Assembly: GCA_965279515.1 (NCBI GenBank)
Contig: CBDIID010000003.1
Span: 3,744,001 to 3,808,000, forward strand
Direction of reading: 5' to 3'
DNA: 64,000 bases
Source: Turneriella sp.
GTDB taxonomy: Bacteria > Spirochaetota > Leptospiria > Turneriellales > Turneriellaceae
Both the position numbers and the translations under genes were made by a program. A model generated the notes under the pieces. That model did not search any database, had not been told where the DNA came from, and saw only the letters and a list, made by a program, of their open reading frames with translations. Positions 19,598-58,684 of the stretch are shown here, piece by piece; the first letter of the stretch is position 1; each line of letters begins with the position of its first letter.

Positions 19598-19599
19598 GG

Positions 19600-41147: not shown

Positions 41148-41249
41148 CATAATCAATACTCCGACAGTTTAGCCCAATCTGAAACAGGCTTTACACCTGA
41201 GAGACCATGGGTGCCATAGATCCCAATGGGGAGCAATTTCTTATATATT
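41148..41249 (+). repeat. Inner capture repeat, B part
   Basis: cataatcaatactccgac...caggctttacacctgagag...ggagcaatttcttatatatt. Confidence 0.8.
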
Positions 41250-42136: not shown

Positions 42137-42202
42137 GCGTTGCAGTTTACAACAAACATTTCAAATCGGCGATTATTTTTAGGGTAACGAGATGAATAAA
42201 AT

Positions 42203-42583
42203 CTACGATAACCAAACTTGCCCTGCCGTTTCGCCCTGCACAACAATCTCACCCGTATCATTGACGCACTCACAAGACATTGTCAACTTTACGCGCTTGG
42301 CAGTTTTGATCGCGCGCGTGACTATCATGCGACCTAGAATTTCTTCGCCTTCATAGACGGGCTTGATAAATTCCATAGTCATCGTGCGAGCGACATAGTT
42401 CATATCGCCGCCGAGCTTTGTGACAATGCTAGCGACCAGCAAACCTTGCGCAATGACTTTTTTATGCGGATTGGTATGGTGATCGCCATCGTCACCCGTG
42501 AGGCGGGCAAAATCTAAAATATCGTTGCGCGTAAAAATTCGCTTGTATTCATAGCTATCGCCTGCCTTCGGAATGATTTGCAT
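42203..42583 (-). CDS. MaoC-like hot-dog fold dehydratase
   Basis: FARLTGD...H...IAQGLL...FIKPVYEGE. Confidence 0.8.
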   Translation of the reverse strand: MQIIPKAGDSYEYKRIFTRNDILDFARLTGDDGDHHTNPHKKVIAQGLLVASIVTKLGGDMNYVARTMTMEFIKPVYEGEEILGRMIVTRAIKTAKRVKLTMSCECVNDTGEIVVQGETAGQVWLS

Positions 42584-42585
42584 TG

Positions 42586-43059
42586 CTAGTCCTTCGCGAT
42601 TTTGGCGTCCCAGGAAAAAAAACCTGGGCCGACGAGACAAAGAAACAGCGAGCTTAAGAGTTGCGCATACTCCGATCTAATTTCGTGCAGTACCGCCCAC
42701 GCACCGACCTGCGGCGGCGACGCGGGGAGCGGTAAAGGTGAGGTGCCATAATATAGCGCAATTTTTGTACACAACATCGCAACAACCATTTGAAACATAA
42801 ACCCTATGCCCACAATCCGGGTAAACAACCCCAGTAACAGGCATAGCCCACCCACGATCTCAAACCCACCGACGAACGTTGCTGTCATGTCAGGCCATGG
42901 AAACCCTAGTTTCGTAAAACGGCCGACTCCTTGGTTGAGATAGACGAACTTGAGAATTCCCTCCCAAAGAAACACCCCACCAGCCATTAGCCTAATCCAG
43001 AAAATAGCCTTGGGTCCGTCGACGGGTGGATGTATCAACCACGAATAAATATTTTTCAT
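42586..43059 (-). CDS. DoxX family membrane protein
   Basis: IRL..G.VF..EG..K, GFP.P, EIVGG..LLLGL.TR, GPG.FS.D. Confidence 0.88.
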   Translation of the reverse strand: MKNIYSWLIHPPVDGPKAIFWIRLMAGGVFLWEGILKFVYLNQGVGRFTKLGFPWPDMTATFVGGFEIVGGLCLLLGLFTRIVGIGFMFQMVVAMLCTKIALYYGTSPLPLPASPPQVGAWAVLHEIRSEYAQLLSSLFLCLVGPGFFSWDAKIAKD

Positions 43060-43186
43060 TTTAACTCCTATTTTTAACTGTTCTACAAGGTTGACTCAGT
43101 TCAGGTGCACTTTATTCCGCGCAATGGGAATTTTTTTAGCATTAGACTGGTCATATCATTAGAGTGAAGGCGAATGGTGTCAAACC

Positions 43187-43708
43187 GTGATATTCAATAA
43201 ATCCGCACGCTTTGAAGAGCTGATTAGACCGCACGTTGATTCGGCCTATAACCTTGCGCGCTATTTAGCGCATAACGACGCAGATGCTGAAGATATTCTA
43301 CAAGAATCCTTGATCAGAGCGTTTCGCTTCTTCGAGACCACGCAGGATTTACGCCCTTGGTTCTTGAAAATTGCGCGCAATTGTGCCTATAGTTGGCTGA
43401 AAAAGCAAAATCGCTATCAAGAGATGACCGATGACGAGATGAATTCCCTCGTCGACGAACAACCTATTGCTGAGGCGCAGTGGTTAAAAGAGATTACGGT
43501 TTTTGAAGTTCGTGAAAATATTCTGAAACTTAAAGCACAATTTCAAGAAGTTTTGGTCTTGCGCGAACTTGAGCAACTGTCCTACGCGGAGATTTCATTT
43601 ATCACAGGCATAGCGCAAGGGACCGTAATGTCTCGCCTTGCGCGCGCGCGAAAAAAGTTTCGGGAATTTTACGAACAGGCTCAGAGGGAGGTCTCACGTG
43701 ACAAATGA
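43187..43708 (+). CDS. ECF RNA polymerase sigma factor
   Basis: DAEDILQE..IRAFR, W..IARN, LSYAEI...GTVMSRLARAR. Confidence 0.93.
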   Translation: MIFNKSARFEELIRPHVDSAYNLARYLAHNDADAEDILQESLIRAFRFFETTQDLRPWFLKIARNCAYSWLKKQNRYQEMTDDEMNSLVDEQPIAEAQWLKEITVFEVRENILKLKAQFQEVLVLRELEQLSYAEISFITGIAQGTVMSRLARARKKFREFYEQAQREVSRDK

Positions 43709-44318
43709 ACATAAACTAGAAGGCGAATCTGTCTTTGGCGCGAAGCGTAAGTACCTATACTTCAAGCTACCCGATGCACGCCGTGAACGTCTCTTCGCAG
43801 AAATTCGACCCAAATTTGCGGCAAAAACGATTATGGCAATTGCGGCATCGACTCTACTAGCCATGAGCTTTTTTTTCGGGCAAGCCATGTCGACAAAAGA
43901 TGCTCCAGACCAGATCGCCGGTGAAGTTGTGTCTGCACATGTTCACTCGTTGATGGTCGGTCATCTGTCGGATATCGCCTCATCCGACCGACATACCGTA
44001 AAGCCATGGTTTGACGGTAAGTTAGATTTTTCGCCTCAAGTCAAAGATCTGTCCGCCGCAGGATTTCCGCTCGTTGGCGGCCGATTGGATTACATCGGGA
44101 GTCGTTCGGTCGCGGCACTGGTGTACAAGCATCGAAAGCACGTTATCAATTTGATGCAGTGGCCTGTGAGCGAAAGCGACGGAAAACCAACGTTCTCGAC
44201 GCGGCGTGGTTATCAAATGTACACATGGACGGCTTCAGGCATCAAACATTGGTTGATTTCTGATCTGAACGGGGGTGACCTGCAAAAATTTGTAAATTTA
44301 TTGCTGAACAAAAGCTGA
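43698..44318 (+). CDS. Transmembrane anti-sigma factor
   Basis: SSDRHTVKPWF.GKLDFSP...GFPLVGGRLDY. Confidence 0.88.
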   Translation: MTNEHKLEGESVFGAKRKYLYFKLPDARRERLFAEIRPKFAAKTIMAIAASTLLAMSFFFGQAMSTKDAPDQIAGEVVSAHVHSLMVGHLSDIASSDRHTVKPWFDGKLDFSPQVKDLSAAGFPLVGGRLDYIGSRSVAALVYKHRKHVINLMQWPVSESDGKPTFSTRRGYQMYTWTASGIKHWLISDLNGGDLQKFVNLLLNKS

Positions 44319-44347
44319 GATAGTTCGCTTAAAAAACGGTAACGCAT

Positions 44348-44375
44348 TTTAATAGTTGCTGAGGCAACTATTAAA
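44348..44375. promoter_or_regulatory. Palindromic operator (TAGTTGC-N4-GCAACTA), probably MarR
   Basis: tttaatagttgctgaggcaactattaaa; related copies at 46736 and 47245. Confidence 0.65.
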
Positions 44376-44390
44376 TCAAAAGGAGCCCTC

Positions 44391-45488
44391 GTGAAGAATT
44401 TGCTATGGATCTTAGTGTCAGTGAAAATTCTCAGCGTTAGCGAACTTGCTGCGGCTAAGAGAGTGTTGATTCTAGACTTTCACAATACTGACCGCGATGG
44501 AAGCTTAACATATCTCGAAGAATCGCTAACAGCAAGTGTCCGAACTTACCTGCACGAGAAGTACGAATTTTTCGAACCTGATGTTGTGGATGTACGCAAG
44601 CGAGCTGACGCTGATTATTTTATTTTTCCGGACGATTTACACAATAAAAATGTCGCGCTGCATCTGGGGCTTGCCATGGGTCAAGATATCGTTTTGAGCG
44701 GTGCATTTAAACGAAAAATTGAATCTTCGGGGCGAAATCTCATCATCGTAGATATCATGTTATTGAATGTTGAAAAGCGCACACTTGTTAAACAATTTGT
44801 GAGCGAACTCTATATAGATAGCAATATCTTCAAATCTATCGAGCTCGTATCCCGCCGCGTGGTAAAAGAATCGCAAGAGATTTTGCCCAATAAGAGCGAA
44901 TTTGAATTTGATATACATTCTCCTCTATCACAAAATCAATTGGCATTGTTTAGCGGCTATAATCTTAACTCCCTTTTTCCAGCCTTGCAAAAAAATGCGA
45001 CAATCGAAAATAAATCTCGGGTGGTAGTTGCTGATCTCGGTGGGCCATTTCTTTCACTGGAATTCAGGCGGGATCGATTTTTTAAGCTAGCACGATTGAT
45101 AGGTTATGGCCGTCTCGACGGGCAATTCTTTTTGAGTGATTTGGCCATCCAAGATTCAGCAAATCGCGCCAAAATACAGGGCTTAGGCTTTTCTGCCGAA
45201 CTCGGTCTAGGCTACAATTTGTTTCGCTACAAAAAGCTAAATCTCTATTTTCTGGGTGGAGTCGGTTTTGCATACGCAAAAGTCAGCCTGGATCTGCAGG
45301 ATACCGGGCAGCCCGATACTGTGACCGGTTCAATTTTTGGCCCAACGGCCAGCACGGGATTGCGTGCAGCGTTTCAAATTTCACCCTCTACTAGCTTTGA
45401 ATGGGGTGTTAGCTACCAAGCTTTATTCTTACAACAATCGTTGGCGGGTAATTTATTAACTTCCATAGGCGTAGGATTCAGACTATGA
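44391..45488 (+). CDS. Exported protein with C-terminal outer-membrane beta-barrel
   Basis: Signal peptide; alternating beta strands ending GVGFRL. Confidence 0.7.
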   Translation: MKNLLWILVSVKILSVSELAAAKRVLILDFHNTDRDGSLTYLEESLTASVRTYLHEKYEFFEPDVVDVRKRADADYFIFPDDLHNKNVALHLGLAMGQDIVLSGAFKRKIESSGRNLIIVDIMLLNVEKRTLVKQFVSELYIDSNIFKSIELVSRRVVKESQEILPNKSEFEFDIHSPLSQNQLALFSGYNLNSLFPALQKNATIENKSRVVVADLGGPFLSLEFRRDRFFKLARLIGYGRLDGQFFLSDLAIQDSANRAKIQGLGFSAELGLGYNLFRYKKLNLYFLGGVGFAYAKVSLDLQDTGQPDTVTGSIFGPTASTGLRAAFQISPSTSFEWGVSYQALFLQQSLAGNLLTSIGVGFRL

Positions 45489-46726
45489 AAACCAAACCAA
45501 ACTCTCTGTTGCTTCTCTCGATCACTTTATTTTTCAGCTGTAGTGGAGGCCTTGAAATCGACACACAGTTCGGCAAAGTTCTGGTTTCCCCGACTACGGG
45601 CCTGACGACAATTGCTGGCGGTGGGACTACAAACTTCTCTTTGGCTCTCGCTCAAAAACCCAAAGCCGATGTGACTATCCGCCTGAATAGTTCTGCTGAA
45701 TCGCTTGGCTACGTCGATAAAAAACGCCTTGTTTTCTCTGCGCAAAATTGGTCGCAGAAGCAAATTGTCACGATCACGGGTACTGACGAAACAATTAGCG
45801 CCAACATTGCTCAAAAGTATAAGATAGTTTTTGCGCCCCTTGAAAGTATAGATGGCAACTACAGCGCGCTACAGATACCAGAGCTTGCAGTGCTGAATTA
45901 TCCCGCTGTCGCTGGCTTTACTCTGAGCGCCACATCGGGGCTTACGACGACAGAAGCGGGTGGTACAGCCACCTTTACGATGCGATTAAATCGACAACCG
46001 ATGGGGAATGTGACGGTCAATCTTAGCTCGAGTAATATTCTTGAAGGCACTATTTTGCCTGCGAGTTTTATTTTCACTAGTGCAAACTGGAATATCGTTA
46101 AGACGGCGACAATTACAGGCATTCCTGACTTAAAACTTGATGGCAATGTTGATTTTAACATAGTTACCACGGTTGCGCTTGGCAGTGATTCTGAATACCT
46201 ATTGCTGAATCCGACGGATTTCAGTGTTACCAATATCGATGTTGATAGTGGCAAATTTCTTTTTGTCACTACGGCTAGTTTCATGGGTACAGGTGGTTTA
46301 ACTACCATGGATATTCGCTGCAATGCAGTCGATGCCGCGCGGCCGACGGTTGGTGGTACGTATCAAGCTGTCTTGGGCGCACTAGACAGCGCAGGTAACG
46401 TCGTACGCAGCGGGGGGCTTTTAGCCAATCAGAGATACTATCGCGGCGTGGATAGCCTCTATGTCGGCATCACGAATGGCTTGGGTCAACTTCAGTTTCC
46501 ATTGACGAATAGCACTTTGGGCGGCTCAGGTATCTACTGGACAGGACTAACCGCAAGCTTTGGCGTGAGTATCGACACCTGTCGAAATGGAGCGGTTGAT
46601 TCTTGGACCGGTGGGCCGTTCAACGGTACTGTTGGCACTGGCACCGTAACCTCATCCGCAGCTGTGGCCACTGGCACTGGCAGTTGCGGTGCTGGAACTG
46701 CGAGGCTTCTCTGCGCACAGCAATGA
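45485..46726 (+). CDS. Surface lipoprotein with Ig/Calx-beta-like repeats and endostatin-like (DUF1554/Len-type) C-terminus
   Basis: FFSC lipobox; TTEAGGTATF..L..QP...V repeats; YWTGL...C..W...LLCAQQ. Confidence 0.72.
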   Translation: MKTKPNSLLLLSITLFFSCSGGLEIDTQFGKVLVSPTTGLTTIAGGGTTNFSLALAQKPKADVTIRLNSSAESLGYVDKKRLVFSAQNWSQKQIVTITGTDETISANIAQKYKIVFAPLESIDGNYSALQIPELAVLNYPAVAGFTLSATSGLTTTEAGGTATFTMRLNRQPMGNVTVNLSSSNILEGTILPASFIFTSANWNIVKTATITGIPDLKLDGNVDFNIVTTVALGSDSEYLLLNPTDFSVTNIDVDSGKFLFVTTASFMGTGGLTTMDIRCNAVDAARPTVGGTYQAVLGALDSAGNVVRSGGLLANQRYYRGVDSLYVGITNGLGQLQFPLTNSTLGGSGIYWTGLTASFGVSIDTCRNGAVDSWTGGPFNGTVGTGTVTSSAAVATGTGSCGAGTARLLCAQQ

Positions 46727-46735
46727 GAATGCTAA

Positions 46736-46757
46736 ATTGGTTGCCAACGCAACCAAT
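46736..46757. promoter_or_regulatory. Palindromic operator upstream of marR
   Basis: attggttgccaacgcaaccaat. Confidence 0.6.
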
Positions 46758-46773
46758 GACTCGTCTTTGGCTC

Positions 46774-47211
46774 ATGCTTAGCCTAGATAAGGCCTATGGA
46801 TTTCATATCGTACGCATTGCACGACTTTTGCGACTGCATTTTTCTAGGTTCGCCGAAAAAAACGGGTTCGATATTTCGCAAGAGCAATGGCTGATCATGA
46901 ATAAATTAGCGCATAACCCTGGTCAATCCCAACTTGAACTCGGCGATGCATTGATACACGACAAACCCAACATCACACGAATTTTGGCCGGCATGGAAAA
47001 GCGCAAGCTCATTCAACGCCGCGTCGACACCAGCGATCGCCGCATTATGCGCGTGAGCCTCAGCGCGCAAGGTAGAAAATTGCATGAAGAATTTTCAGAG
47101 GTCGTCGCCAACGAGCGGCCGAAAATTTACGCAGGTTTAGCTGAGGCAGATTTCATAAATTTGATGAAAGTTCTGTCGCAGCTCGAAACGAACATTAGCC
47201 GCAACATGTAA
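46774..47211 (+). CDS. MarR family transcriptional regulator
   Basis: EQWLI...SQ.EL...DKPNITRIL..MEK..LI.R..D..DRR. Confidence 0.92.
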   Translation: MLSLDKAYGFHIVRIARLLRLHFSRFAEKNGFDISQEQWLIMNKLAHNPGQSQLELGDALIHDKPNITRILAGMEKRKLIQRRVDTSDRRIMRVSLSAQGRKLHEEFSEVVANERPKIYAGLAEADFINLMKVLSQLETNISRNM

Positions 47212-47244
47212 TGCGAAGCTTAAAAAAAGGCCTCATAACGGCAA

Positions 47245-47264
47245 ATAGTTGCCTAGGCAACTAT
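47245..47264. promoter_or_regulatory. Palindromic operator upstream of downstream operon
   Basis: atagttgcctaggcaactat. Confidence 0.65.
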
Positions 47265-47283
47265 AAGAAATTTGAAGGAGAAA

Positions 47284-47733
47284 ATGATGAAAAAGAAAAC
47301 GAGAAAATCCATGTTGTTCATGGCATTGACACTGATGACGGGTGTATTTGCTGCACCAGAAAGCGCGGGCACGGTCAAAGAGTTGCGCCGAAAAATCGAA
47401 GCGTTCAAAGACGCCGGTGACGCACGCGACGTGGCGGCGATGAATGCAGTGCTGCACAAAGATTTTCGCTTAATGGCGTTTATCGGCGCCGCGACTGAGG
47501 GCATGGCGATGGATAAGGCGGGCTATGTCGGTGCGCTTACCGCTGGCAAAATCGGCGGAACCAAGCGCGCGCACAAGATTCTATCGCTTGAAGTGCGTGG
47601 CAAACACGCCGCGATTCGCATTCAGATGACGTCGAAAGAATTAAAATTCGACACGTACATGCAATGGGTTCAGACCGTCGATGGTTGGCAGCTCGTGAAC
47701 GATTTAACGCTGGCAGTACCTCAGGCAAAATGA
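47284..47733 (+). CDS. Exported NTF2-like (DUF4440-type) protein
   Basis: Signal peptide; D.....VLH.DF ... DGWQLV. Confidence 0.7.
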   Translation: MMKKKTRKSMLFMALTLMTGVFAAPESAGTVKELRRKIEAFKDAGDARDVAAMNAVLHKDFRLMAFIGAATEGMAMDKAGYVGALTAGKIGGTKRAHKILSLEVRGKHAAIRIQMTSKELKFDTYMQWVQTVDGWQLVNDLTLAVPQAK

Positions 47734-47734
47734 C

Positions 47735-48232
47735 ATGCGCCGGGTGGTATGGGCAGTTATTATTTCGGGGTGGTGCTTGAGCTCAGCCACCCCGCGCGCA
47801 AATCTCATTCAGGCGCAGGGTATGGAAGTCACTTGGTCGCTTACAAGCGATGAAGTGATCTTTAAGCTGCGCGCCCCGCATACAGGTTGGGTGGCGATTG
47901 GGATTAATGAGTCAGACAACCTCACTGGAACCAATCTGATAATGGCGACAGTTTCCGGCAATGCAGCAAACCTGTCTGACCGCAGCATTATTGCACCCGG
48001 CGACCATCGTAGCGTTGAGACACTCGGCTGTAAATCGCATGTGCGATTAATTTCGGGTAGCGAACAAGCTGGCGCCACGAACATTCAGTTTGCGCTCAAG
48101 CTGCAAAGCAGCGATCGCTACCATTACTCTCTGAGCGCCGGAAAAAAAATCTGGCTACTCATGGCTTATAGTGAAAGCGACGATTTAATGCACCATTCTT
48201 TGTTTAGAACTTCGAAACAAATTATGTTGTAA
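47735..48232 (+). CDS. DOMON domain protein
   Basis: W......F.L.AP.TGWVAIG ... L.AYS.SDD..HHS. Confidence 0.82.
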   Translation: MRRVVWAVIISGWCLSSATPRANLIQAQGMEVTWSLTSDEVIFKLRAPHTGWVAIGINESDNLTGTNLIMATVSGNAANLSDRSIIAPGDHRSVETLGCKSHVRLISGSEQAGATNIQFALKLQSSDRYHYSLSAGKKIWLLMAYSESDDLMHHSLFRTSKQIML

Positions 48233-48268
48233 TGGAAATGGAAATTTGATTTAGGAAAGGAGAAAAAC

Positions 48269-48646
48269 ATGAAAGTAAAAAAAATAATTTGGGCATTGGT
48301 CGCGTTAGCGACATCAGGTATTTGGGCAGACGTAGTGCCTTATTCAAAGGCAGAATTTCTCAAAGCGCAGGAAGATGGCAAATCTGTTGTCATCGACGTC
48401 GCGGCATGGTGGTGCCCGGTTTGCCGCATTCAGAAATCGCGCATCACCTCGCTGATTGAAGATGAAGTGGAATTCAAGAATACCACTGTCTTTGTTGTCA
48501 GTAACGGCGATTCCGAAACGAAGCAAGAATTTGGCGTGAGCAGCAGGGGGACAGTAATTGCCTTTAAAGGCAAAACCGAAAAATCTAGACTGGTGCTCGA
48601 AACCGACAAAGAAAAGCTGCGAGAGCTTTTGCGCTCAGGACTTTGA
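48269..48646 (+). CDS. Exported thioredoxin family protein
   Basis: AWWCPVC. Confidence 0.88.
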   Translation: MKVKKIIWALVALATSGIWADVVPYSKAEFLKAQEDGKSVVIDVAAWWCPVCRIQKSRITSLIEDEVEFKNTTVFVVSNGDSETKQEFGVSSRGTVIAFKGKTEKSRLVLETDKEKLRELLRSGL

Positions 48647-49356
48647 TGCCGTTTGCTCTAACATTCATGGCTGGTGCCATCGGCACCCTGTCACCGTGTG
48701 TTCTGCCCGTGCTGCCCATCGTTATGGGTAGCACGCGGCAGTCAGGGCCCTTGGGCCCCGTTGTGCTAGCGGCAGGAATGATTTTTTCATTCACCCTTGT
48801 CGGCTTTAGCGTCGCGAGTTTTGGCTATAAAGTTGGCATAACGCAAGAGACGATTAGCTCTGTTGCTGCAGTGATGCTGCTCATTTTTGGCCTAGTGATG
48901 TTTTCGAGTAGCTTGGCGGATTTTTTGACGAAACTGCTGCGTCGTTTCTCTGAGCGGTTTGCCAACGTCTCGGCGAAATCAGACAAAAAAACTTATGCCG
49001 GTCAGTTTTTTACCGGTATCTTACTCGGCGGCATTTGGAGTCCTTGTACGGGCCCGACCCTCGGCGTTGCCATATCACTTGCTGCTTCGCAAAAAGATTT
49101 ACTCCGTTCTTTTTTTCTAATGGCAACGTATGGCGTAGGTTCCGCGCTACCGCTGATGCTGGTTGCATATTTTTCACGCCAGTTTTCGTCCAGACGAGAA
49201 CGCATTGGCAATCTTGCCGCTTCGAGTAAGAAAGTTTTCGCGATCATTCTCATTATTGCCGGATTATTGATGGTGACACATTTAGATAAAGTGCTAGAGG
49301 GCTTCTTGCTGGATATTCTACCCGAATCATTCATGAACTTTCTCACGAAGTACTGA
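48643..49356 (+). CDS. ccdA: Cytochrome c biogenesis CcdA / DsbD transmembrane protein
   Basis: LSPCVLPVLP and WSPCTGPTLG. Confidence 0.9.
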   Translation: MMPFALTFMAGAIGTLSPCVLPVLPIVMGSTRQSGPLGPVVLAAGMIFSFTLVGFSVASFGYKVGITQETISSVAAVMLLIFGLVMFSSSLADFLTKLLRRFSERFANVSAKSDKKTYAGQFFTGILLGGIWSPCTGPTLGVAISLAASQKDLLRSFFLMATYGVGSALPLMLVAYFSRQFSSRRERIGNLAASSKKVFAIILIIAGLLMVTHLDKVLEGFLLDILPESFMNFLTKY

Positions 49357-49841
49357 TGCAAGTTTTTTGGAAATTTTTATTCCTGAGTACGCTTATTCTA
49401 GGCACTTCTTCCTGTAATGCTCCACGGAAAAACTTGAAACAGATAACCATGATTAATCCACCGAATGTCTACGCCACGTATGACCGCGGCTTTTCTCAAG
49501 GCGTGCGCGCTCACGTGAGCGAGATTATTTTTCTTTCAGGTATAGTCGGCTGGCAGGAGAATCGAAAGCTCAAAGATCAGGACGATTTTACATCGCAAAC
49601 GCAACAGGCGTTTAGAAACATAATGAGCATTCTGGCCCATGAAAACTTGTCGGAAAATTCGATACTGCACCTACGTTATTTCGTCGTGAATCTGTCACCT
49701 GAGCGAGTACAACGGGTGGCGCAGGCGATGGCTGCGATCTTTAAGTTCGATTATAAACCTGCCACGACCATCGTCGGCGTATCCGCCTTAGCGCGACCTG
49801 ACCTATTGATAGAGATCGAAGTGACAGCAGTGGCAAAGTAA
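49356..49841 (+). CDS. RidA (YjgF/YER057c) family protein with lipoprotein-like leader
   Basis: FSQGV...IFLSG...PATT.VGV.AL..P..LIEIE. Confidence 0.88.
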   Translation: MQVFWKFLFLSTLILGTSSCNAPRKNLKQITMINPPNVYATYDRGFSQGVRAHVSEIIFLSGIVGWQENRKLKDQDDFTSQTQQAFRNIMSILAHENLSENSILHLRYFVVNLSPERVQRVAQAMAAIFKFDYKPATTIVGVSALARPDLLIEIEVTAVAK

Positions 49842-49843
49842 AA

Positions 49844-49976
49844 AAAATAGTTCTTTAAGGCCATATTTAACTTCTCATAATCAGTATTCCGACCGATGAC
49901 CTCACTCTGAAACGGGCTTTACACCTGAGAGATAATGGGTTCTGTAGGCCAAGTTGGGAGTAATTTCCTGCATGTT
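49844..49976 (+). repeat. Inner capture repeat, complete A+B
   Basis: aaaatagttctttaagg...cataatcagtattccgac...cgggctttacacctgagag...ggagtaatttcc. Confidence 0.8.
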
Positions 49977-50042
49977 TAATGCCGAACACGTTGCATCGCC
50001 GACACGAGGTCGGCGAATAACAAAGGCGCAATTATTTCAGAC

Positions 50043-50250
50043 AACGTGGATTTTACGCTGACGTTTTTTGACGCCAGTGTCATTTATTCAATCTGTAAAG
50101 CCGATTCGCGTCAAAAAATGTGGTCGTAGCGGCTCGCAGTGGCGCGCAAAAGCAAGCGTCCCGCTTGCGCGACATCTGCGATCTTTGCCGCGGAGACCCG
50201 AGCACGCGAGGAGCTACGGCACCGCAGCGGCGCAGCGCGTAAAATTTGTT
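50043..50250 (-). repeat. attC-like site 39
   Basis: Family consensus ends. Confidence 0.9.
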
Positions 50251-50312
50251 GTCTGAAGTAATTGCGCCTGTGAGCCCTGGCAAGGAGGCCAGGGCGACGG
50301 CAGATAAATGCT

Positions 50313-50407
50313 CATAACTTGTCATTTTGTCACCTTCAAAAACAGGCTTTACACCCGAGAGATTCGGGATTCTGTAGGCCTTAGTGGGGAGTAATTTCCT
50401 ACATATT
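50313..50407 (+). repeat. Inner capture repeat, B part
   Basis: 95 bp identical to 55611-55705. Confidence 0.9.
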
Positions 50408-50625
50408 AATATAAATCCCGCGTGGGCAGGCGTAGCGCATTAATGGTCACCTTGACTTGAGACGGGAATATGAATTATCGCACCGAGAAACAGACCCCGC
50501 GATCTGTCACTGCGCACAACAGAATTTAGGATTCTGCACCAGAATACCAGTCGGATTCGAGGATTGCGCTGCGGAAAAATGATTCGTCCGGAGCAGCGTA
50601 ATCGGGCTTTACAGACGCCACGCGC

Positions 50626-52236
50626 TTGTTGAGGTTGTTGACCCCCGTATCTATCATGCTGCTCCGATCAATGAGTATCATATTTCTCCTCGGCGTTGCG
50701 CCGGTTTTTTCCGCAGACTTAAGGCTTGAAATACCGCAACCCTATGATTTGGGTAAATTTTGCGCGTATACGCTCCTACCGAATGCAGCGGCGAACGTTG
50801 AAGAGGTTCTGACACTACCCACAGCGCAGTGGAAGCCAATACATTCCAGCGTGATTTCCCTGGGGGTAAACCCCAGTATCGTATGGCTACGTTGCCGCCT
50901 CGTCAATCAATCCGTTGAGCAAAATTGGTCATTGGTTTCGCAATACAATTTTGGCCGAAGCATCGAAGCATTTTTCGTGACCGGACGGGAAAAAATGCCA
51001 CAGGCGGCGCAACTACAGCCAAATACCAAATCGTTCTGGCAGCGCAACGACGCCTTCGCGCTACCGACCAAAAGCGCGCAGCCAATCGAAATAGTGCTGC
51101 GCTACGAATCTGATTTAGCGAAAGTAATGTATTTTCAGGTGATGCCTGAACGGCTGCTCACCGGACAGGAAAATCAGGAGAGCGCATTTTTTCTTGTCTT
51201 TACCGCCGTTTTAATCTTGTTCATACTGCTGAATCTGTTGCTCGCGGTAAGCCTTAAATCCGTTATTCCGGTATTGTATTCGCTTAGCATGCTGACCTAC
51301 TACCTGTACCAAATTATCCAGCTGGGTTTCGGTCCCGTGCTATTTTATCCTGACCGGCCTGCCATAAACGGAAACATGGTAAGCATTTCAGCGGGCATCT
51401 CCATAATTTTTTATCAATTATTTTTCCAGCGTCTGTTACAGTTCAAGACGCTCGTTCCGCGATTGAATCTTGTGATGAATGTAATAAGCGTCGTTTCTGG
51501 CGTGTATATTTTTGCCACTGCTTTCACGCTTCTGCCTATTGGTATTTTGCAAAAAATCGGCCGGCTTTTGTTTTTCACAGCGGCAATGGTTGTCTTTTCT
51601 GCGGGATGGATTGTTTACCGCAAGCGCTTCAGGCCAGCTATATATTCGATCTACGGTTACGCTGTGATCTTGCTCTGCCAGAGCTTCTATTTTGCTGTGA
51701 TGTCGGGCTTTATCGATTTTGGCGGTTATTTCGTGAAAATAATTCTACCCTTGGGTCAAACGGTCGAGTATCTGTTTTTCTTTACCACGTTGTCTCTGCG
51801 CCTTAGGGACAAGGCGCAAATCAACCGCCTACGCCAAATTACCGAAGACGAAGAAATAACCCGCGATCTGCAAACCGATGAAAAACTAAGGTTATCCGAA
51901 GACAAGGCTGCCAAAGTGAGCGACGAATTACGCGAAATTTTCACGCGGGAAAAAATTTTCTGTGACGAAGACCTTTCGCTCGATCGTCTTTCTGCCATGC
52001 TGCATATTACACGGCATGAATTATCCGATCTATTGAGCAAGCGGTTTGGCACAAATTTCTACGATTTTATCAACCGGTATCGGGTTGAAGAGGCGCAGAG
52101 ACTGTTACGCGAAAATCCAGAAGAAAAAATACTGGATATCGCCATGGCGGTTGGCTTCAACAGTAAGTCGACGTTCAATAAGGAATTCAAAAGAGTCACG
52201 GGAAAAACGCCTAAGGCAACGCGGAATCCGTCCTAA
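50626..52236 (+). CDS. 7TM-DISM sensor fused to AraC-family HTH
   Basis: Extracellular domain, about 7 TM helices, FYDFIN.YRVEEA...IA..VGFNSKSTFN..FK; start uncertain. Confidence 0.88.
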   Translation: MLRLLTPVSIMLLRSMSIIFLLGVAPVFSADLRLEIPQPYDLGKFCAYTLLPNAAANVEEVLTLPTAQWKPIHSSVISLGVNPSIVWLRCRLVNQSVEQNWSLVSQYNFGRSIEAFFVTGREKMPQAAQLQPNTKSFWQRNDAFALPTKSAQPIEIVLRYESDLAKVMYFQVMPERLLTGQENQESAFFLVFTAVLILFILLNLLLAVSLKSVIPVLYSLSMLTYYLYQIIQLGFGPVLFYPDRPAINGNMVSISAGISIIFYQLFFQRLLQFKTLVPRLNLVMNVISVVSGVYIFATAFTLLPIGILQKIGRLLFFTAAMVVFSAGWIVYRKRFRPAIYSIYGYAVILLCQSFYFAVMSGFIDFGGYFVKIILPLGQTVEYLFFFTTLSLRLRDKAQINRLRQITEDEEITRDLQTDEKLRLSEDKAAKVSDELREIFTREKIFCDEDLSLDRLSAMLHITRHELSDLLSKRFGTNFYDFINRYRVEEAQRLLRENPEEKILDIAMAVGFNSKSTFNKEFKRVTGKTPKATRNPS

Positions 52237-52376
52237 GGGCATTCTCTGCCTGCGCTCTGCCCACGGCGGCGGTTTGTGATGAAAAAAAAGAGCCTCCCTA
52301 CGTCCGACTGGAACCAAACGGTCGAAATCCGCCGGATTCTGCTGTATTAGATGAGCACCAAAAAACAGGAGAATCT

Positions 52377-53111
52377 ATGAAAACATACTTTACTTTGCTC
52401 ATCGCGCTCACTCTCGCAGCTTCGCTGCCAGCTGCGCCCAAGAACGCCGCAAAACCAACGAAGCCAGTAGCCACCGAACCGCCGGCAGCCGCAGCCGTAC
52501 CGACGCCTCAGCCGACGCCAAAAACAGAGGGAGGCTTGGTCATGAGCCTGGCATTCTACGGTGCGTATAACATCGCAAGCTCAGACCTCTTCACCTTACC
52601 CGCGGGAAGCACGGCCAGCTGGACCACATCGGGTGGTGGCGTTTTAGGCGCAGGCGCTAATTTTATGATCGGCAGCCAGCTGATCCGCGGTGGGGTAAAT
52701 GTTGCCTATTCTCCCATTGGCGAATACCGGCAAGGCGGTTCGACGGTATTTCTTAGGTACTTACCCATCGAAGGCTTACTGCGTCTTTATCCGATCGCCG
52801 GCCTTTATGTCGGCGGCTTGGCTGGGTACGCGCTTGATCTGAGTTCGGCCGTGGTTTCGGGCAGCGGTTCGCTGACAAAAACCGACGGCATAACGTATGG
52901 CGGCAGTCTCGGCTACCTGATCAAAAATGGGCCCGTCGACTTAGATCTCGGCGTTGATATTCGGATGTTATCGTTGTCAGCAACCGCCCCTACCGGTGGC
53001 AGTAATTTTTCCCTAACCAGTCTTGACGCGACCAGCGTTGCAGCGGGTGTGAGCAAAACCTACACAATTTTGAATATTGTTCCACGCGTCGGCTTTAATT
53101 ACAAATTCTAA
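52377..53111 (+). CDS. Outer-membrane beta-barrel protein
   Basis: AGGAG RBS, signal peptide, Pro-rich linker, C-terminal GFNYKF. Confidence 0.75.
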   Translation: MKTYFTLLIALTLAASLPAAPKNAAKPTKPVATEPPAAAAVPTPQPTPKTEGGLVMSLAFYGAYNIASSDLFTLPAGSTASWTTSGGGVLGAGANFMIGSQLIRGGVNVAYSPIGEYRQGGSTVFLRYLPIEGLLRLYPIAGLYVGGLAGYALDLSSAVVSGSGSLTKTDGITYGGSLGYLIKNGPVDLDLGVDIRMLSLSATAPTGGSNFSLTSLDATSVAAGVSKTYTILNIVPRVGFNYKF

Positions 53112-53168
53112 ATTGTGCACTACAGGTTTGAGTTGACACCATTTTTTCGTAAGGTAATGAAGGAAAAT

Positions 53169-53585
53169 ATGAAATCAGAAGCAACCACGCAAGCAACAGC
53201 AGTTCGCGCCGTTCAGGCCTGGCTGGTAATTTGTAGCGGGATCTTTTTCTGCCACTGCGGTGCTACGGCAGGTCTTAATGCCCGTAACGTCGACCATCCG
53301 GTGATGGTGGGCAATGTTCGCCGCATAGGGGCACGGCCTGCCGGCGAATTGAGAAATAGCCAACCCCTGTCGTTTAAGAACACCCAAAACGGTGACTACA
53401 GCACACTCTCGCCCGGCCGGCTCAGCGGCTACCTGCTGAAGAATCTGGGATACAAAAACAGTGTGGTGCAAATCAACAGCATCGGGTACAAAAATACGGT
53501 CGCGAACTATTTTTTTACCTGGTCGGTACGCGATGAAGCAAGTATCGAGGGTGAAGGCGGTCTGCAATCCGAAGGGGGCAGATAG
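53169..53585 (+). CDS. Putative lipoprotein
   Basis: Hydrophobic segment then Cys; in operon. Confidence 0.6.
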   Translation: MKSEATTQATAVRAVQAWLVICSGIFFCHCGATAGLNARNVDHPVMVGNVRRIGARPAGELRNSQPLSFKNTQNGDYSTLSPGRLSGYLLKNLGYKNSVVQINSIGYKNTVANYFFTWSVRDEASIEGEGGLQSEGGR

Positions 53586-53607
53586 AATGCTCTCGTTGAC
53601 AGGCAAA

Positions 53608-54021
53608 ATGAAATACCTAATGGTCATGTGTATTGTCATCGTGCTAAACTGCGCTGGCAGTCAGGGTGCGGTACGATTTGATCATTTGGATTATCCCGTT
53701 TCTATGAGCGGCTTTTTGTATGGCAAGAATAACGAAATTCTCATGAAAGATCTGCACATGCAAGAAGTCGGAAAATTCTCGCTGACCCGGCGGCAGTGGA
53801 GCATCGGTTACTCACTCATACCGCTGAATGGCAAAGAGGCTTTCGCCGAGGCCATGAACCAGGCTATCATTGCAGCCAAGGGTGACGCGATGGTCAACCT
53901 CGAGATCGAGACGGCTAGTTGCTCATGGAACAGTGTGCCGTACCTTTTTCTGTTGCCCATTTGGCCCGGTTGCGCTGATGTCAAACTGACCGCAGATATT
54001 ATCAGGGAGAAACGACCATGA
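53608..54021 (+). CDS. Putative lipoprotein
   Basis: MKYLMVMCIVIVLNC lipobox; GDAMVNL. Confidence 0.68.
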   Translation: MKYLMVMCIVIVLNCAGSQGAVRFDHLDYPVSMSGFLYGKNNEILMKDLHMQEVGKFSLTRRQWSIGYSLIPLNGKEAFAEAMNQAIIAAKGDAMVNLEIETASCSWNSVPYLFLLPIWPGCADVKLTADIIREKRP

Positions 54022-54431
54022 AATTTGCCAGCACAATTCACCGGACGATAGTGCGCGTTATTTTTTTCTGCCTGCTTTCAGCACTCGCCGCGCAAGTGCC
54101 GCAAGATGTATTGTTGCTTGAAGAAGAACAGGTGAATATTTTTCATTTGCACCGAAATTGTAAATCTCTCGGTGTGATCGAAACGGAAAGGTCATGGCCG
54201 TATAAAAAAACAGAATATGCATCACTCGAAAAATCCAGGATCGCAGAAGAAGCAATTATGCGCGACATGGGCTATCGGGCCGGGGCAAACGCCATGCAGT
54301 TCTTAGGTATGAAATATAGCGTCAGAACGATCGGTCGGAAAATACCGGAATTCAGAATTGACATTAGCACCGATATTCGCTACTGGAAATGTGACCCCAA
54401 AACGCTCGGTATGCTAAAGCGCAGAGAATGA
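54018..54431 (+). CDS. Hypothetical exported protein
   Basis: ATGA overlaps; C..LG ... GAN motif. Confidence 0.62.
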   Translation: MKFASTIHRTIVRVIFFCLLSALAAQVPQDVLLLEEEQVNIFHLHRNCKSLGVIETERSWPYKKTEYASLEKSRIAEEAIMRDMGYRAGANAMQFLGMKYSVRTIGRKIPEFRIDISTDIRYWKCDPKTLGMLKRRE

Positions 54432-55231
54432 TGCTGCGCGTATTTGTCGGCGTCTTTCTGTTCGCATGCCTCGCCGCATGCAATGCGCGCCCGTCGTTCG
54501 ATAAGATGATTGTGCGCCAACCGGGGTCGCGAAAGGCGATTGGGAACAAAGTCTTCGTCGATCAGGCGACCGGCGGCGGCGAAAACGACGCCCTGTCGCC
54601 AACGATCGCCGGCGAAATCAAAATTCCCAACGAAGAATTCACCAAGGCTGTTGAAACGTCGATACGCCAATCCGGTTTTTTCTCAGAGTATGCCGCGCGC
54701 TTTGAAGAAGAGTGGGGGCTGCGGGTGCTCATCGTCAACGTTGAAACGCATATGGACATGCTTGCGGCGACCATGACAGGGCACGTGACGGCGAGATATT
54801 CCGTTTTTTACAAGAATAATCCGGCATACGAATTTGAGTTTCAGACTAAGGGTGCCGCGACCGATTACCTCGGCAGCTATGGCGGTCTGCGCAAAGAGGC
54901 GGTTGAAAAAGCGACGCAGCAAAATATTGCACAATTTTTGCAGCACGTCGTAACCTATGATTTCTCCGATATTACCGAAGCGCCTGTGCAAGAAAAGCTA
55001 CGGCAGAAAAAACAAATTCGCATCGTTGGGCGCATTTTCCAGATTAACGGACGCAAGGTCGATATCATACCCGCCGCTGGGGCGCTCAAAGTGGGAAAAA
55101 TTTACACTATCTTGCGCAAGGACAGGCCAGTCGCAACTGTAAGGGTAGATACCGTCTTCCATACCAAGTGTGCCGGAAAAATCTTGACCGGCGGCGCGGC
55201 GATCGCACCGGATATGTCTGTTGGACAGTGA
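54428..55231 (+). CDS. Putative lipoprotein
   Basis: LAAC lipobox; ATGA overlap. Confidence 0.68.
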   Translation: MMLRVFVGVFLFACLAACNARPSFDKMIVRQPGSRKAIGNKVFVDQATGGGENDALSPTIAGEIKIPNEEFTKAVETSIRQSGFFSEYAARFEEEWGLRVLIVNVETHMDMLAATMTGHVTARYSVFYKNNPAYEFEFQTKGAATDYLGSYGGLRKEAVEKATQQNIAQFLQHVVTYDFSDITEAPVQEKLRQKKQIRIVGRIFQINGRKVDIIPAAGALKVGKIYTILRKDRPVATVRVDTVFHTKCAGKILTGGAAIAPDMSVGQ

Positions 55232-55315
55232 CGGCGTTTCTGCTTTTACTATAACTGTCCGTACCCAAAATTAATTCTGGCTGACGCCCTTACCGATGCG
55301 CCGGTTCATGCATCT

Positions 55316-55597
55316 ATGGCACAAAACATCCACGCATTCACCGCCGCCAACATTTCCGGCAAAGAAACAAGCCTCGCCGATTACAAAGGCAAAGTTGTTT
55401 TGATTGTGAACACCGCCAGCAAATGCGGCTTCACACCGCAGTTCGCGGGTCTCGAATCGCTGTACGAAAAATACAAAGACCGCGGTCTCGTGATTCTTGG
55501 CTTTCCCTGCAACCAATTTGGCGCGCAAGAACCCGGTACATCTGATCAGATTCAGGAATTCTGTCAGCTCAACTACGGGGCAAATATAGCACTTTAA
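55316..55597 (+). pseudogene. Glutathione peroxidase, 3'-truncated by the inner repeat
   Basis: [32 protein letters not shown], then abruptly ANIAL* encoded by the repeat; C-terminal half (WNF motif) absent. Confidence 0.88.
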
Positions 55598-55705
55598 GGC
55601 ACTAACTACCCATAACTTGTCATTTTGTCACCTTCAAAAACAGGCTTTACACCCGAGAGATTCGGGATTCTGTAGGCCTTAGTGGGGAGTAATTTCCTAC
55701 ATATT
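55583..55705 (+). repeat. Inner capture repeat, complete A+B (123 bp)
   Basis: aatatagcactttaaggcactaactacc-cataa-...-ctacatatt. Confidence 0.9.
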
Positions 55706-55775
55706 CAATATCGCTGTTCTCGTCAGAGCGCGCGCACGGATGCGCGCGGATAACCAAGGCGCAATTATTTCAGAC

Positions 55776-55984
55776 AACGTGGATTTTACGCTGACGTTTT
55801 TTGACGCTTGTGTCATTTATTCAATCTGTAAAGCCGATTTGCGTCAAAAAATGTGGTCGTAGCGGCTCGCGGCGACGCGCGAAAACACACCTCCCGGTGT
55901 GCGCGTCGTCCGCGATCTTTGCCGCGGAGACCCGAGCACGCGAGGAGCTACGGCACCGCAGCGGCGCAGCGCGTAAAATTTGTT
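55776..55984 (-). repeat. attC-like site 40
   Basis: Family consensus ends. Confidence 0.9.
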
Positions 55985-56049
55985 GTCTGAAGTAATTGCG
56001 CCTGTGAGCTCGGCCACGGATGGCCGAGCGAATCCTTCGTAGGACTTCT

Positions 56050-56143
56050 CATAACTGGTTGTTTTCCCCCCCTGTCAATCGGGCTTTACAGCCGATAGGT
56101 GAGGTTTAAGTTCCCCTTAGTGAGGAGCAATATCCTATATATT
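56050..56143 (+). repeat. Inner capture repeat, B part
   Basis: cataactggttgtttt...cgggctttacag...ggagcaatatcctatatatt. Confidence 0.8.
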
Positions 56144-56149
56144 AAATGT

Positions 56150-56617
56150 TCAGAGCATCAGCTCCATCGAATAGTTTACCAGAATTTGGCCATTCCGCTC
56201 GATGTGATTTTCGCAAATTTCTCGAAAGCCTTGCTTTGCAAAAAACTTTCGCGCGACAAGCGACGCTTCGACATAGAGTCGCTTTAACCGCATTTCGATT
56301 GCCTGACGTTTCACCTCTTGGTAGAGGGCCGTGCCAACACCCTTGCTTTGAAAATCTGGCCGCACGTATGCGCAGTCAATGTGTCCATCGGCCTCAAGCT
56401 CGATGAAGCCCGCAATCATCGGGCCGACAAGAGCGACATGCGGGCGCTTTTGATTAAGGCGCGTTTGCCATTTTATCATATCGGTTGGAGTTGGCGCCCA
56501 TGCTTCTTTTTGCTTAGCGGTATAAATTCTTTCATCGATGGCATGCACCGCAGTATGAAAAAGATCTGCAATCTCTCCAGCCATTGATTCAGAATAAGGC
56601 GATAATTGCCTGATCAT
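56150..56617 (-). CDS. GNAT acetyltransferase (YafP-like)
   Basis: YT..Q..AWA, GHID..YVRPDFQ.KGVG, EAS..A..FF...GF. Confidence 0.9.
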   Translation of the reverse strand: MIRQLSPYSESMAGEIADLFHTAVHAIDERIYTAKQKEAWAPTPTDMIKWQTRLNQKRPHVALVGPMIAGFIELEADGHIDCAYVRPDFQSKGVGTALYQEVKRQAIEMRLKRLYVEASLVARKFFAKQGFREICENHIERNGQILVNYSMELML

Positions 56618-56624
56618 ACTGAAA

Positions 56625-57227
56625 TCAGCCCGCCTTCAATCCGGCTATAAGCAAGTGAATAACCGCTTCGGCTTCGGCCCTGGCTTTCGTCGAATCTTTA
56701 GCGGTGGCAATAGCTGCGCCCGCTTCCGCAAAAGCTCCGCCCAGAATCCGCGCCGCATCGGGCAAGGGCAGCGGCCGCATGATACCCATTTCTATCCAGC
56801 GGTGCATCAAGCCCGCCACCAGAGGTTCATTGACCGTGGCGTCGGCTTCTTTAAATTTTGCGTGGGCCAAAACGGTAGGTGCCTCACGCAACAGAACCAC
56901 CTGAACAGAGGGGTCCATACAAGCATTCAGGTAAGCGCGAGCTGCTGCCTCGACTTGCGCCCAGCCTGTTTCAGCATCGGCCGCATTCTGAATGGTCGAA
57001 GCCAGTTCGGTGAAAATTTCCGAAACGACGGCGGAGAAAATGTCAATCTTGCCCGCAAAGTGGTGGTAGAGTGCGCCATGAGTCACGCGAGCTGCCCTGC
57101 AGATATCAGCAACGCTGGTTTCTGCATATCCATACTTTGTGAAGACTTGCCGAGCAACACGCAACAAACCTTTCCTTCTAACGGCTTTTTGTTCCACACG
57201 GCTTTTTACGGTTCGTTGCTTAGGCAC
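56625..57227 (-). CDS. TetR/AcrR family regulator
   Basis: F...GY..TSV.DI..AA.VT.GALYHHF..K. Confidence 0.92.
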   Translation of the reverse strand: MPKQRTVKSRVEQKAVRRKGLLRVARQVFTKYGYAETSVADICRAARVTHGALYHHFAGKIDIFSAVVSEIFTELASTIQNAADAETGWAQVEAAARAYLNACMDPSVQVVLLREAPTVLAHAKFKEADATVNEPLVAGLMHRWIEMGIMRPLPLPDAARILGGAFAEAGAAIATAKDSTKARAEAEAVIHLLIAGLKAG

Positions 57228-57244
57228 GAGGAAATCCGATTTTA

Positions 57245-57290
57245 TTTGACATTACGTCGTAATGTTTATACATTATCATATAATGTCAAA
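57245..57290. promoter_or_regulatory. Tandem palindromic operators in the divergent tetR promoter region
   Basis: acattacgtcgtaatgt and acattatcatataatgt, flanked by TTGACA on both strands. Confidence 0.65.
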
Positions 57291-57416
57291 TACAATAACA
57301 ACCGCTGATCTAGGTTTTTATGGGTCACGATTCGCGCCGCACGTCTGTGGCATAGTCTCACAAACGATGTTATTTTTTCTGGGTGGGATGGCAACCATGC
57401 GCGCCCTAAGGTGCAT

Positions 57417-58316
57417 ATGATGAGAAAAGCGAATCTGATCTTCGGTATCGTCTTGTTTCTTGCTTTTCTAGGCACAGGATATTACATGAGCCGCTACTTC
57501 AAGCCCGAGCATCTAACGGATCTGACGATGCGCATGCAAATTCGGGCAAGCCATATCTATCTACTATTCACCGCGCTCTTAAACATCCTGGCATTTACGT
57601 GCGAACTGCGTGGAACCGGCCAGGCAAGAAAATTTTTCGATACGGCTTTTCGTCTATTTCTCGTCGCTGCCGGCACCGTCGCGCTCTGCGCATTCGCTTT
57701 CGAGCATACCGGCGACCTGAAAGAACGCAAGCTGACTTTGTTATCCGTTATATTGGCGTTAGCTTCGGTTGGCTTCATTTTGATCCACGAGATTTTGGCC
57801 GCAAAGCGCCAGCATTTATTTTTGTCTAGCCATGCCTTGACTATGGAAAAACCAATCGCTGTGAACGCTGGAAAAATTGAAGCGCGCCAAAAAAAATCCA
57901 TATACCCGGCTCCTTTTGCAGCAATGATGGCGCTGCGCGAAAAGCGAGTGCTGGGCGATCTTTTTGGCCTGACAAACTTCGGAGTGAACTTGACAACAAT
58001 TAAGCCTGGTGGCATGTCTGCGCTACGGCATGCACATGCAACACAAGATGAGTTTATCTATATTGTTTCGGGAAATCCCGTGCTGGTGACTAATGAAGGT
58101 GAAACGCAACTCAGTCCGGGTATGTGCGCGGGATTTCTTCATGGAAACGGAAACGCACACAACCTAATCAATCGCGAAAACACCGACGCTGTTTATCTCG
58201 AAATAGGCGACCGGAGCGCTGGCGATTCCATCTTATACCCCGATAACGATCTCATGGCAAATTTTGAAGGCCCTGGCAACTGGCGATTTACCCACAAAGA
58301 CGGCTCGCCCTACTAA
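57417..58316 (+). CDS. 4-TM membrane domain fused to a cupin domain
   Basis: TM region, then LGD.FGLTNFGVNL...PGG.SALRHAH..QDEF.Y. Confidence 0.8.
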   Translation: MMRKANLIFGIVLFLAFLGTGYYMSRYFKPEHLTDLTMRMQIRASHIYLLFTALLNILAFTCELRGTGQARKFFDTAFRLFLVAAGTVALCAFAFEHTGDLKERKLTLLSVILALASVGFILIHEILAAKRQHLFLSSHALTMEKPIAVNAGKIEARQKKSIYPAPFAAMMALREKRVLGDLFGLTNFGVNLTTIKPGGMSALRHAHATQDEFIYIVSGNPVLVTNEGETQLSPGMCAGFLHGNGNAHNLINRENTDAVYLEIGDRSAGDSILYPDNDLMANFEGPGNWRFTHKDGSPY

Positions 58317-58334
58317 CCGAACACGTGTCTCAAA

Positions 58335-58409
58335 AATATAGCCCTTTAAGGGCTGACTTTCCATAACTGGTTGTTTTGTCCCCCTGTAAGGAGCAATATT
58401 CGAGATATT
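58335..58409 (+). repeat. Inner capture repeat, A plus internally deleted B
   Basis: aatatagccctttaaggg...cataactggttgtttt...ggagcaatatt. Confidence 0.8.
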
Positions 58410-58475
58410 GAAGCCTGATTACGTTGCCGCGTCGACACGAGGTCGGCGCAGCACAAAGGCGCAATTATTTCAGAC

Positions 58476-58684
58476 AACGTGGATTTTACGCTGACGTTTT
58501 TTGACGCTTGTGTCATTTAATCAATCTGTAAAGCCGATTCGCGTCAAAAAATGTGGTCGTAGCGGCTCGCGGCGACGCGCGAAAACACACCTCCCGGTGT
58601 GCGCGTCGTCCGCGATCTTTGCCGCGAAGACCCGAGCACGCGAGGAGCTACGGCACCGCAGCGGCGCAGCGCGTAAAATTTGTT
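58476..58684 (-). repeat. attC-like site 41
   Basis: Family consensus ends. Confidence 0.9.

Follow-up and report, generated by a model that had tools for sequence, protein, structure and literature searches.

The stretch analysed here, the window, comprises 64,000 nucleotides of a Turneriella sp. (assembly GCA_965279515.1, contig CBDIID010000003.1, positions 3,744,001 to 3,808,000 of the forward strand), whose 4.9 Mb genome is referred to as G000. It includes an integron-like array in which one cassette of 5,734 bp carries an AraC-type regulator gene, five open reading frames (ORFs) without Pfam match and a fragment of a glutathione peroxidase gene (gpx), enclosed by two direct copies of a 95-bp repeat (Table 1). 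The repeat can be assigned to the oriIS end of an IS91/ISCR-type rolling-circle element, and the cassette is an instance of foreign, gene-blind capture by such an end inside an integron-like cassette. The comparisons included 20 genomes of the family (the relatives, among them G007, G008, G009, G011 and G013), loci and contigs designated by L-numbers (L024 of G007, L025 of G013, L028 of G011, L052 of G009 and the metagenome contig L100) and the Logan contigs of sequencing runs designated by X-numbers, of which X1 and X2 belong to one study and are possibly the source samples, and X6 and X8 belong to a second study.

The cassette, its cut gene and a donor-like locus

Positions 50313-50407 and 55611-55705 are identical over 95 bp, as a first-pass annotation of this DNA had claimed. 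The identity is exact, but the 95 bp are only the 3' part of a 125-bp element which is complete in the right copy alone, the left one being without the first 30 bp. The limits proposed for the unit, 50248..55778, likewise enclose a real unit but become 50249-55982 when its own attC-like site is counted. The 95-mer occurs in the G000 chromosome twice on the + strand and 0 times on the - strand. As many as 7,415 exact 95-mers are present more than once in this genome; hence, the length of the repeat is not telling, whereas its placement at both ends of the cassette is.

The repeat-cargo-repeat structure is real and not an assembly artefact. The contigs of X1 and X2 cover 50378-55640 and 50313-55640, respectively, with 0 differences from the window, and the 95-nt node of X1 has a depth of 6 against about 3 in its flanks. 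The contigs of X6 and X8 also bridge the gpx junction, so that the possibility of a misassembled junction, raised at the outset, is answered by two studies.

The gene at the right end of the cargo is indeed cut midway, the fragment matching positions 1-88 of 108 of the GSHPx profile. The break had been placed exactly where AATATAG starts. It does lie at the element, but the border is not a clean one, since about four bases (55581-55584) fit both gene and element. In X6 and X8 position 55581 is a T, giving TAC GGG GTA AA (Y-G-V-K), and Y-G-V-K is found at this place in 10 of 12 gpx genes of the relatives and in the host gpx. The cut thus falls at TAAA, a tetramer with which the element also starts. 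Similarly, a G009 cassette of identical layout, with a nitric-oxide-reductase-type operon as cargo, has an enolase gene cut at the same GTA AA, and the cargo of the 9.2-kb neighbour cassette (starting at 41084) begins within a MarR gene at CAAA. The endpoint is therefore arbitrary with regard to genes, as had been proposed, but not with regard to sequence, the cut lying at a TAAA/NAAN tetramer. At the left cargo end no cut ORF was recognised. As a stable insertion in the enolase gene of a donor is unlikely, capture more likely took place on transient or incoming DNA.

A donor-like locus with an intact gpx of 160 aa is present in G008, where this gene is preceded by counterparts of the four ORFs in the downstream part of the cargo. 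This contig shows the same acyl-CoA dehydrogenase and sensor-kinase neighbours as G000's own gpx, and neither an element end nor an attC core was found on it. Together with the mid-gene cut, this locus upholds the earlier proposals that a genomic segment was captured regardless of gene borders and that the cargo is not the copy of an ORF or mRNA. It is not the exact donor. With the host gpx the fragment shares 83% identity, with the gpx of G014, G016 and G018 86-87%, which makes an unsampled congener the likely donor. A homolog of the AraC regulator was found only in G009, at a different locus, where it is 57% identical and followed by a similar-looking outer-membrane-type ORF. There is no second copy of the cargo in G000, only paralogs and the host gpx, and a plain rearrangement of this genome is thereby refuted. 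Low-depth cargo pieces in X5 and X6 do not point to a donor, as they end before the junction or have too little length.

Table 1. Features of the cassette and of its neighbours in the window
Feature	Position	Strand	Remarks
attC-like site of the preceding cassette	50038..50248	+	crossover G/TT at 50248/50249
Whole cassette, subclass X (shared frame)	50249..55982	+	5,734 bp
Left terminal arm	50249..50269	+	complementary to 55758-55778, one G-T wobble
Leader hairpin	50274..50295	+	CAAGGAGG loop, CsrA-site-like
Left 95-bp copy	50313..50407	+	5'-truncated oriIS end of IS91/ISCR-type element (assigned); begins CATAAC
Captured cargo	50408..55580	+	5.17 kb, GC 0.50
7TM-DISM/AraC regulator	50626..52236	+	PF07695, PF07696, PF12833
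Outer-membrane-type protein	52377..53111	+	244 aa; no Pfam match, label by eye
Four ORFs	53169..55231	+	138, 144, 137, 267 aa; 57-74% identical to and syntenic with genes upstream of the intact gpx of G008
Glutathione peroxidase, 5' part	55316..55584	+	about 89 of 160 codons; runs into the element, stop at 55597
Junction tetramer common to gpx and element	55581..55584	+	CAAA in the window; TAAA in X6, X8
Right copy	55581..55705	+	complete 125-bp element end (assigned); oriIS tip at 55705, then CAAT
Trailer	55706..55778	+	GGA-loop hairpin 55730-55748; right terminal arm 55758-55778
Own attC-like site	55771..55982	+	about 207 nt; bottom strand folds
Sibling subclass-X cassette	41084..50248	+	9,165 bp; cargo begins within MarR gene at CAAA; two ends 77% alike
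Sibling subclass-X cassette	55983..58682	+	2,700 bp; left partial end; right end internally deleted

The transposon end and its host array

The identity of the repeat emerged from the search of the relatives with the right end as query, in which stacked direct copies were found in G007 and G013. Behind a 382-aa ORF of G007 stand six identical copies of about 125 bp, the first three in tandem and the other three spaced by 0.56, 1.8 and 1.6 kb of cargo; in G013, three identical ends and one with a deletion surround cargo. The 382-aa ORF matches Y2_Tnp (PF04986) and Zn_Tnp_IS91 (PF14319), both over the cut-off. The repeat corresponds to the stretch 115-240 bp downstream of this type of transposase gene, and with each of the four full-length transposase copies of the relatives it begins about 115 bp past the stop codon. 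The transposase of the relatives aligns with those of IS91 and IS801 and has the HUH motif NPHVH. Its KTAQY aligns with YFGSY of IS91, so that the second tyrosine alone is retained and the two-tyrosine pattern Y-x-x-x-Y is not found and the element does not belong to IS91 proper; the ISCR enzymes are single-tyrosine enzymes. The complete element has a size of 1.7 kb, and its closest named carriers are Turneriella assemblies. As regards terIS, four elements share a hairpin block from near TGAG upstream of the transposase gene, beyond which the sequence varies.

The tip of the repeat fits this assignment. It ends in AATTTCCTACATATT followed by CAAT, the tip of IS91 being AAATTCCTATCGAT followed by CAAG and that of the IS801 type AAATTCCTATGCAT followed by CAAG or GAAC. 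The pattern AAT(T/A)TC(C/T)TA...T resembles the IS91, IS801-type and IS1294-type records and is one base longer in the repeat. Directly after the tip, NAA is present in 20 of 31 anchored copies against a background of 7%, CAAG and GAAC included; this count skipped seven copies, contains two mis-anchored rows which read TAAA by eye, and concerns copies that are related and not independent. The tetramer rule is looser here than in IS91. Neither terminal inverted repeats nor target-site duplications were seen at the element ends.

Other readings of the repeat were dropped. Folding was too weak for a structured RNA (z -0.5 to -1.9), and an Rfam search of the window gave 0 matches. A consensus scan for outward promoters found none inside the repeat and one site overall, with 0.7 expected. 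A look for RNA data sets containing the sequence listed none, which speaks neither for nor against expression. The repeat had also been considered an inverted half attC on account of the common motif TGTAAAGCC and its similar spacing, a view abandoned after the link to the transposase emerged. This motif lies at window 50338-50346 and recurs in attC loops, 52 of its 65 copies on the + strand being located within the arrays; in the transposon end it is reversed, at similar spacing from the tip.

The host array is one of two in G000 built on repeated attC-like sites of about 207 nt, of which 75 and 51 cassettes were parsed; the cassette under study belongs to the array of 51. Such sites exceed the length range of classical attC sites. 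The 3' end of a cassette pairs better with its own 5' end than with that of the neighbour in 117 of 125 scored cassettes (worse in four), as expected for units which circularise at G/TT; in cassette 50249-55982, 20 of 21 terminal bases of the left and right arms pair. The bottom strand of its attC-like site folds with -74.9 kcal/mol (z -8.4), and none of 200 shuffles was as stable. No match to the IntI profile TIGR02249 over the cut-off was found in G000, and none adjoins either array. The best integrase candidate has about 24 residues where VchIntIA has about 65, the IntI insertion of about 40 residues being missing. Satellite sites near this integrase are missed by the strict attC regular expression. 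The host system would thus not be classed as a classical integron, as its putative integrase is without the IntI insertion and is not adjacent to the array. No joint of an excision circle was seen in the Logan contigs, which cannot exclude circles.

Within these arrays the element ends are confined to one subclass of cassettes. Subclass X, defined by common terminal arms, comprises 17 of the 126 cassettes and holds the three longest ones (9,165, 5,734 and 4,167 bp; the longest other cassette has 2,744 bp). Element ends were detected in 12 of these 17 cassettes and in none of the 109 others. No end was detected in the other five cassettes of the subclass, several of which hold one gene and are of ordinary size.

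In the relatives, the transposase itself is found inside such cassettes. Both transposase copies of G011 lie in subclass cassettes, one of which reads leader, transposase, end, 3.2 kb of cargo, end, trailer and attC, its two ends differing by one base. Likewise, among 41 metagenome contigs with a subclass leader, four have the transposase directly behind the leader, and a fifth shows the left end of the element where the contig stops; L082 and L097 share the same leader sequence and could represent a single lineage. L111 is a second complete two-end transposase-bearing cassette, and its ends also differ at one base. The motif CAT(A/G)AC lies 63-64 nt from the cassette start in all seven transposase-type leaders and 63-67 nt into eight of nine end-only leaders examined. 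The 95-bp copy of the 5,734-bp cassette opens with CATAAC at offset 64, and CATAAC also stands 30 nt into the full 125-bp end. A deletion from CAT(A/G)AC to CATAAC would drop the transposase and keep 95 of the 125 bp, which would account for the length of the repeat.

Several further observations concern the element in the relatives. The second G011 cassette (L028:9153-11171) bears the transposase, one end only and a heavy-metal-type P-type ATPase. In G013, the 3' end of the transposase is duplicated in tandem (L025 16529-16645), and a transposase with an internal deletion is present in G009 (L052). Among the captures of the free-standing end array of G007 is a piece of an attC cassette array in inverted orientation (L024:9718-11509), which indicates that traffic runs both ways; the G007 array also holds a purH fragment only 44% identical to the gene of G000. 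In the free-standing array of G013 (L025:9027-9941), an rRNA adenine dimethylase (PF00398), which we take to be Erm-like, stands beside a DUF6943 protein in cargo of GC 0.39; the capture system is thus able to acquire genes of the Erm/KsgA family. Another cargo of the G013 array encodes an Eco57I-type restriction-modification protein.

Proposed loading of the cassette and alternatives

Cassettes of the order frame-transposase-end-cargo-end-trailer-attC exist in the relatives. For the 5,734-bp cassette it is therefore proposed that an IS91/ISCR-type transposase residing in the cassette frame placed a 5.2-kb chromosomal fragment, likely of a congener, behind its own end, copied this end and was later deleted, a reading to which we assign a probability of roughly 0.72. 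The steps are deduced from sequence comparison alone. The transposase would cut single strands at NAAN tetramers and would sometimes stop 125 nt from oriIS, giving a mini-end, which would be joined to foreign DNA, reading on to another NAAN. The unit of end and cargo would be inserted at the resident oriIS junction; a deletion from CAT(A/G)AC of the leader to CATAAC within the first end would remove about 1.5 kb and leave 95 of the 125 bp; and the insertion-less integrase would excise or insert the cassette at G/TT. Each of the transposase steps has a precedent in IS91 or IS801, and their combination is a proposal.

There are several points which weigh against this scheme. The transposase is absent from G000 in a family search that was positive in three of three control genomes, so that every catalytic step is read from other genomes. 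The left cargo junction of the cassette is AATA, a poor fit to NAAN. The araC-omp pair and the lipoprotein-gpx block were not seen side by side in any relative, and the true donor was not found, the best gpx match being 87% and that of the G008 block 69%. The model of the end was based in part on subclass copies, a bias towards the figure of 12 of 17 that does not extend to the 0 of 109. Moreover, in most cassettes without a transposase the two ends are alike to only about 55-77%. The two ends are mutual best matches in the cassette at 41084 and in one lying 7.7 kb before the window; they are not in the cassette at 18930, and the ends are unlike in L103 and L080. The right end of X6 and X8 matches the window as far as CATAAC and then diverges, passing by eye into a different subtype of the end; a search of 115 loci for the first 20 nt of the divergent part gave no hit. 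These mismatched and chimeric ends imply that the ends recombine, with CATAAC as a hot spot. Hence, the 100% identity of the two copies may have been reset and is only a soft sign of recency, and the divergence between left and right ends was dropped as a clock because the ends are mosaic. The capture, called probably recent in the first-pass annotation, is likely so but unproven.

Such recombination is the basis of the alternative that survives best, which we nevertheless regard as unlikely. Here the frame would carry a mini-end without transposase as a landing pad, which takes up a circle of end and cargo made by an element elsewhere, either through homologous recombination or through a crossover at CATAAC; TAAC is itself a NAAN tetramer, and the opposite strand reads GTTATG, which might serve the integrase as a secondary site. 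In this case like-with-like recombination, and not one duplication, would be the source of the 95-bp identity. The unlike left and right ends of several cassettes, the chimeric right end of X6 and X8 and the right ends truncated near CATAAC are consistent with this, and the available text of PMC3189936 and PMC6354349 describes IS801 fragments as recombination hot spots. However, the right end in the window has matching first and second parts and is of the common type, and it is the X6/X8 form which looks recombinant. In two complete cassettes with the transposase a single base distinguishes the ends, and even this alternative keeps the frame as the loader and changes only the order of steps.

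Capture may also have occurred in a free-standing array of transposase and ends, from which an end-cargo-end slice later moved into an existing passive cassette. Arrays of this kind exist in G007 and G013, that of G007 having taken up a piece of attC array, and ends outside the arrays are also present in G000. This course of events is nonetheless improbable, as six cassettes have the transposase at a constant position following the same leader, the left copies start at a nearly fixed offset matching the motif of the transposase-type leader, and none of the 109 other cassettes holds an end. Two identical direct repeats around genes would also be produced by an ordinary composite transposon, a MITE pair, a tandem duplication or a misassembly, but with inverted repeats and target duplications not seen, unequal 5' ends of the copies, a cargo present nowhere else in G000 and junction contigs from two studies, these explanations are very nearly negligible.

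In the preferred reading, that of a transposase residing in the frame, the transposase-bearing cassette is likely a loader which makes chromosome fragments into swappable cassettes. A wider version is tentative and rather doubtful: the transposase-bearing cassette would be a cassette factory which loads arbitrary chromosomal or foreign DNA between ready attC-like ends, sheds its transposase and trims cargo and ends down to an ordinary one-gene cassette. The series from two ends over one partial end to no end, and on to as many as 55 of 125 cassettes with the same GGA-hairpin leader or trailer, would be the record of this decay. If true, a large share of the array would owe its cassettes to a DNA-based route of genesis, the first of its kind.

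Known systems and further features of the arrays

The element shares several properties with the IS91 family (IS91, IS801, IS1294) as described in the accessible parts of the sources: an HUH transposase with a zinc domain, an oriIS past the gene with a AATTCCTA-like tip, a tetramer adjoining oriIS, no target duplication, one-ended transposition and miniature right ends. According to the same parts, IS91 and IS801 insert beside CTTG or GTTC, which is CAAG or GAAC on the window strand, and IS801 mobilises short right-end fragments of 229, 360 and 679 nt beginning at the tetramer (PMC13181058, PMC3189936). In contrast to that family as there described, the element has a single tyrosine in the catalytic region, reuses one fixed 125-bp end as a direct repeat, stacks captured DNA on the oriIS side and not past terIS, and lies inside an attC-bounded cassette. 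The excerpts available on ISCR1 of complex class 1 integrons (PMC6218425, PMC8876359) show a closer parallel in an IS91-like element tied to integrons with variable foreign DNA on its oriIS side. Unlike the present element, however, ISCR1 is there placed in the 3' conserved segment (3'-CS), outside the cassettes, and its repeat is the 3'-CS; here element and cargo lie between two attC-like sites, which turns the cargo into a cassette, and what is repeated is an end of the element itself.

With the cassettes of sedentary chromosomal integrons and CALINs, as far as the sources at hand describe them, the arrays share their length, the G/TT crossover, self-pairing ends and a folded bottom strand. 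They differ from classical cassettes in attC-like sites of about 207 nt, in a candidate integrase which lacks the IntI insertion and is not adjacent, and in multi-gene cargo cut mid-gene. The idea of a mobile element as cassette maker is present in the group IIC-attC intron model (PMC7923331, consulted in part), which uses a retroelement, whereas the maker proposed here would be a DNA rolling-circle transposase. In the part of PMC8352920 available, cassette genesis is mentioned with no mechanism. Titles and abstracts, with partial coverage of subscription journals, yielded no case of an IS91-type element making integron cassettes from inside. Against this portion of the literature, what is new is the coupling of a capture element with a cassette frame, likely a route of genesis for a cassette subclass. 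The origin of integron cassettes is unsettled, and the cassette and its relatives display a DNA route stage by stage, with mid-gene cuts as its fingerprint. The scope is limited to one genus and, within its non-canonical integron-like system, to 17 of 126 cassettes, and the route may not extend to classical integrons.

Some further features recur in the arrays. The hairpins of the leader (50274-50295) and trailer (55730-55748) have CANGGANG loops, which presumably resemble CsrA/RsmA sites. Hairpins with a GGA loop are found in 55 of 125 cassettes, 38 of which have one at either end, while random 60-mers contain one in 0.6% of cases; this spread fits descent from the subclass frame and could be convergence. 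Cassettes of about 400 bp with the common start TTAGCCGCCGTTACCGG recur at window 2367, 8336, 12208, 28913 and 37659 and in the other array. Several cassettes carry, just ahead of the right arm, a 1.3-kb unit which resembles an insertion sequence and has inverted ends of 47 nt (window 4946-6268 and 20966-22288); many end in TAGTACC. Finally, L100 carries a near-identical copy of the cassette at window 18930-20226, which implies that subclass cassettes are shared between samples.

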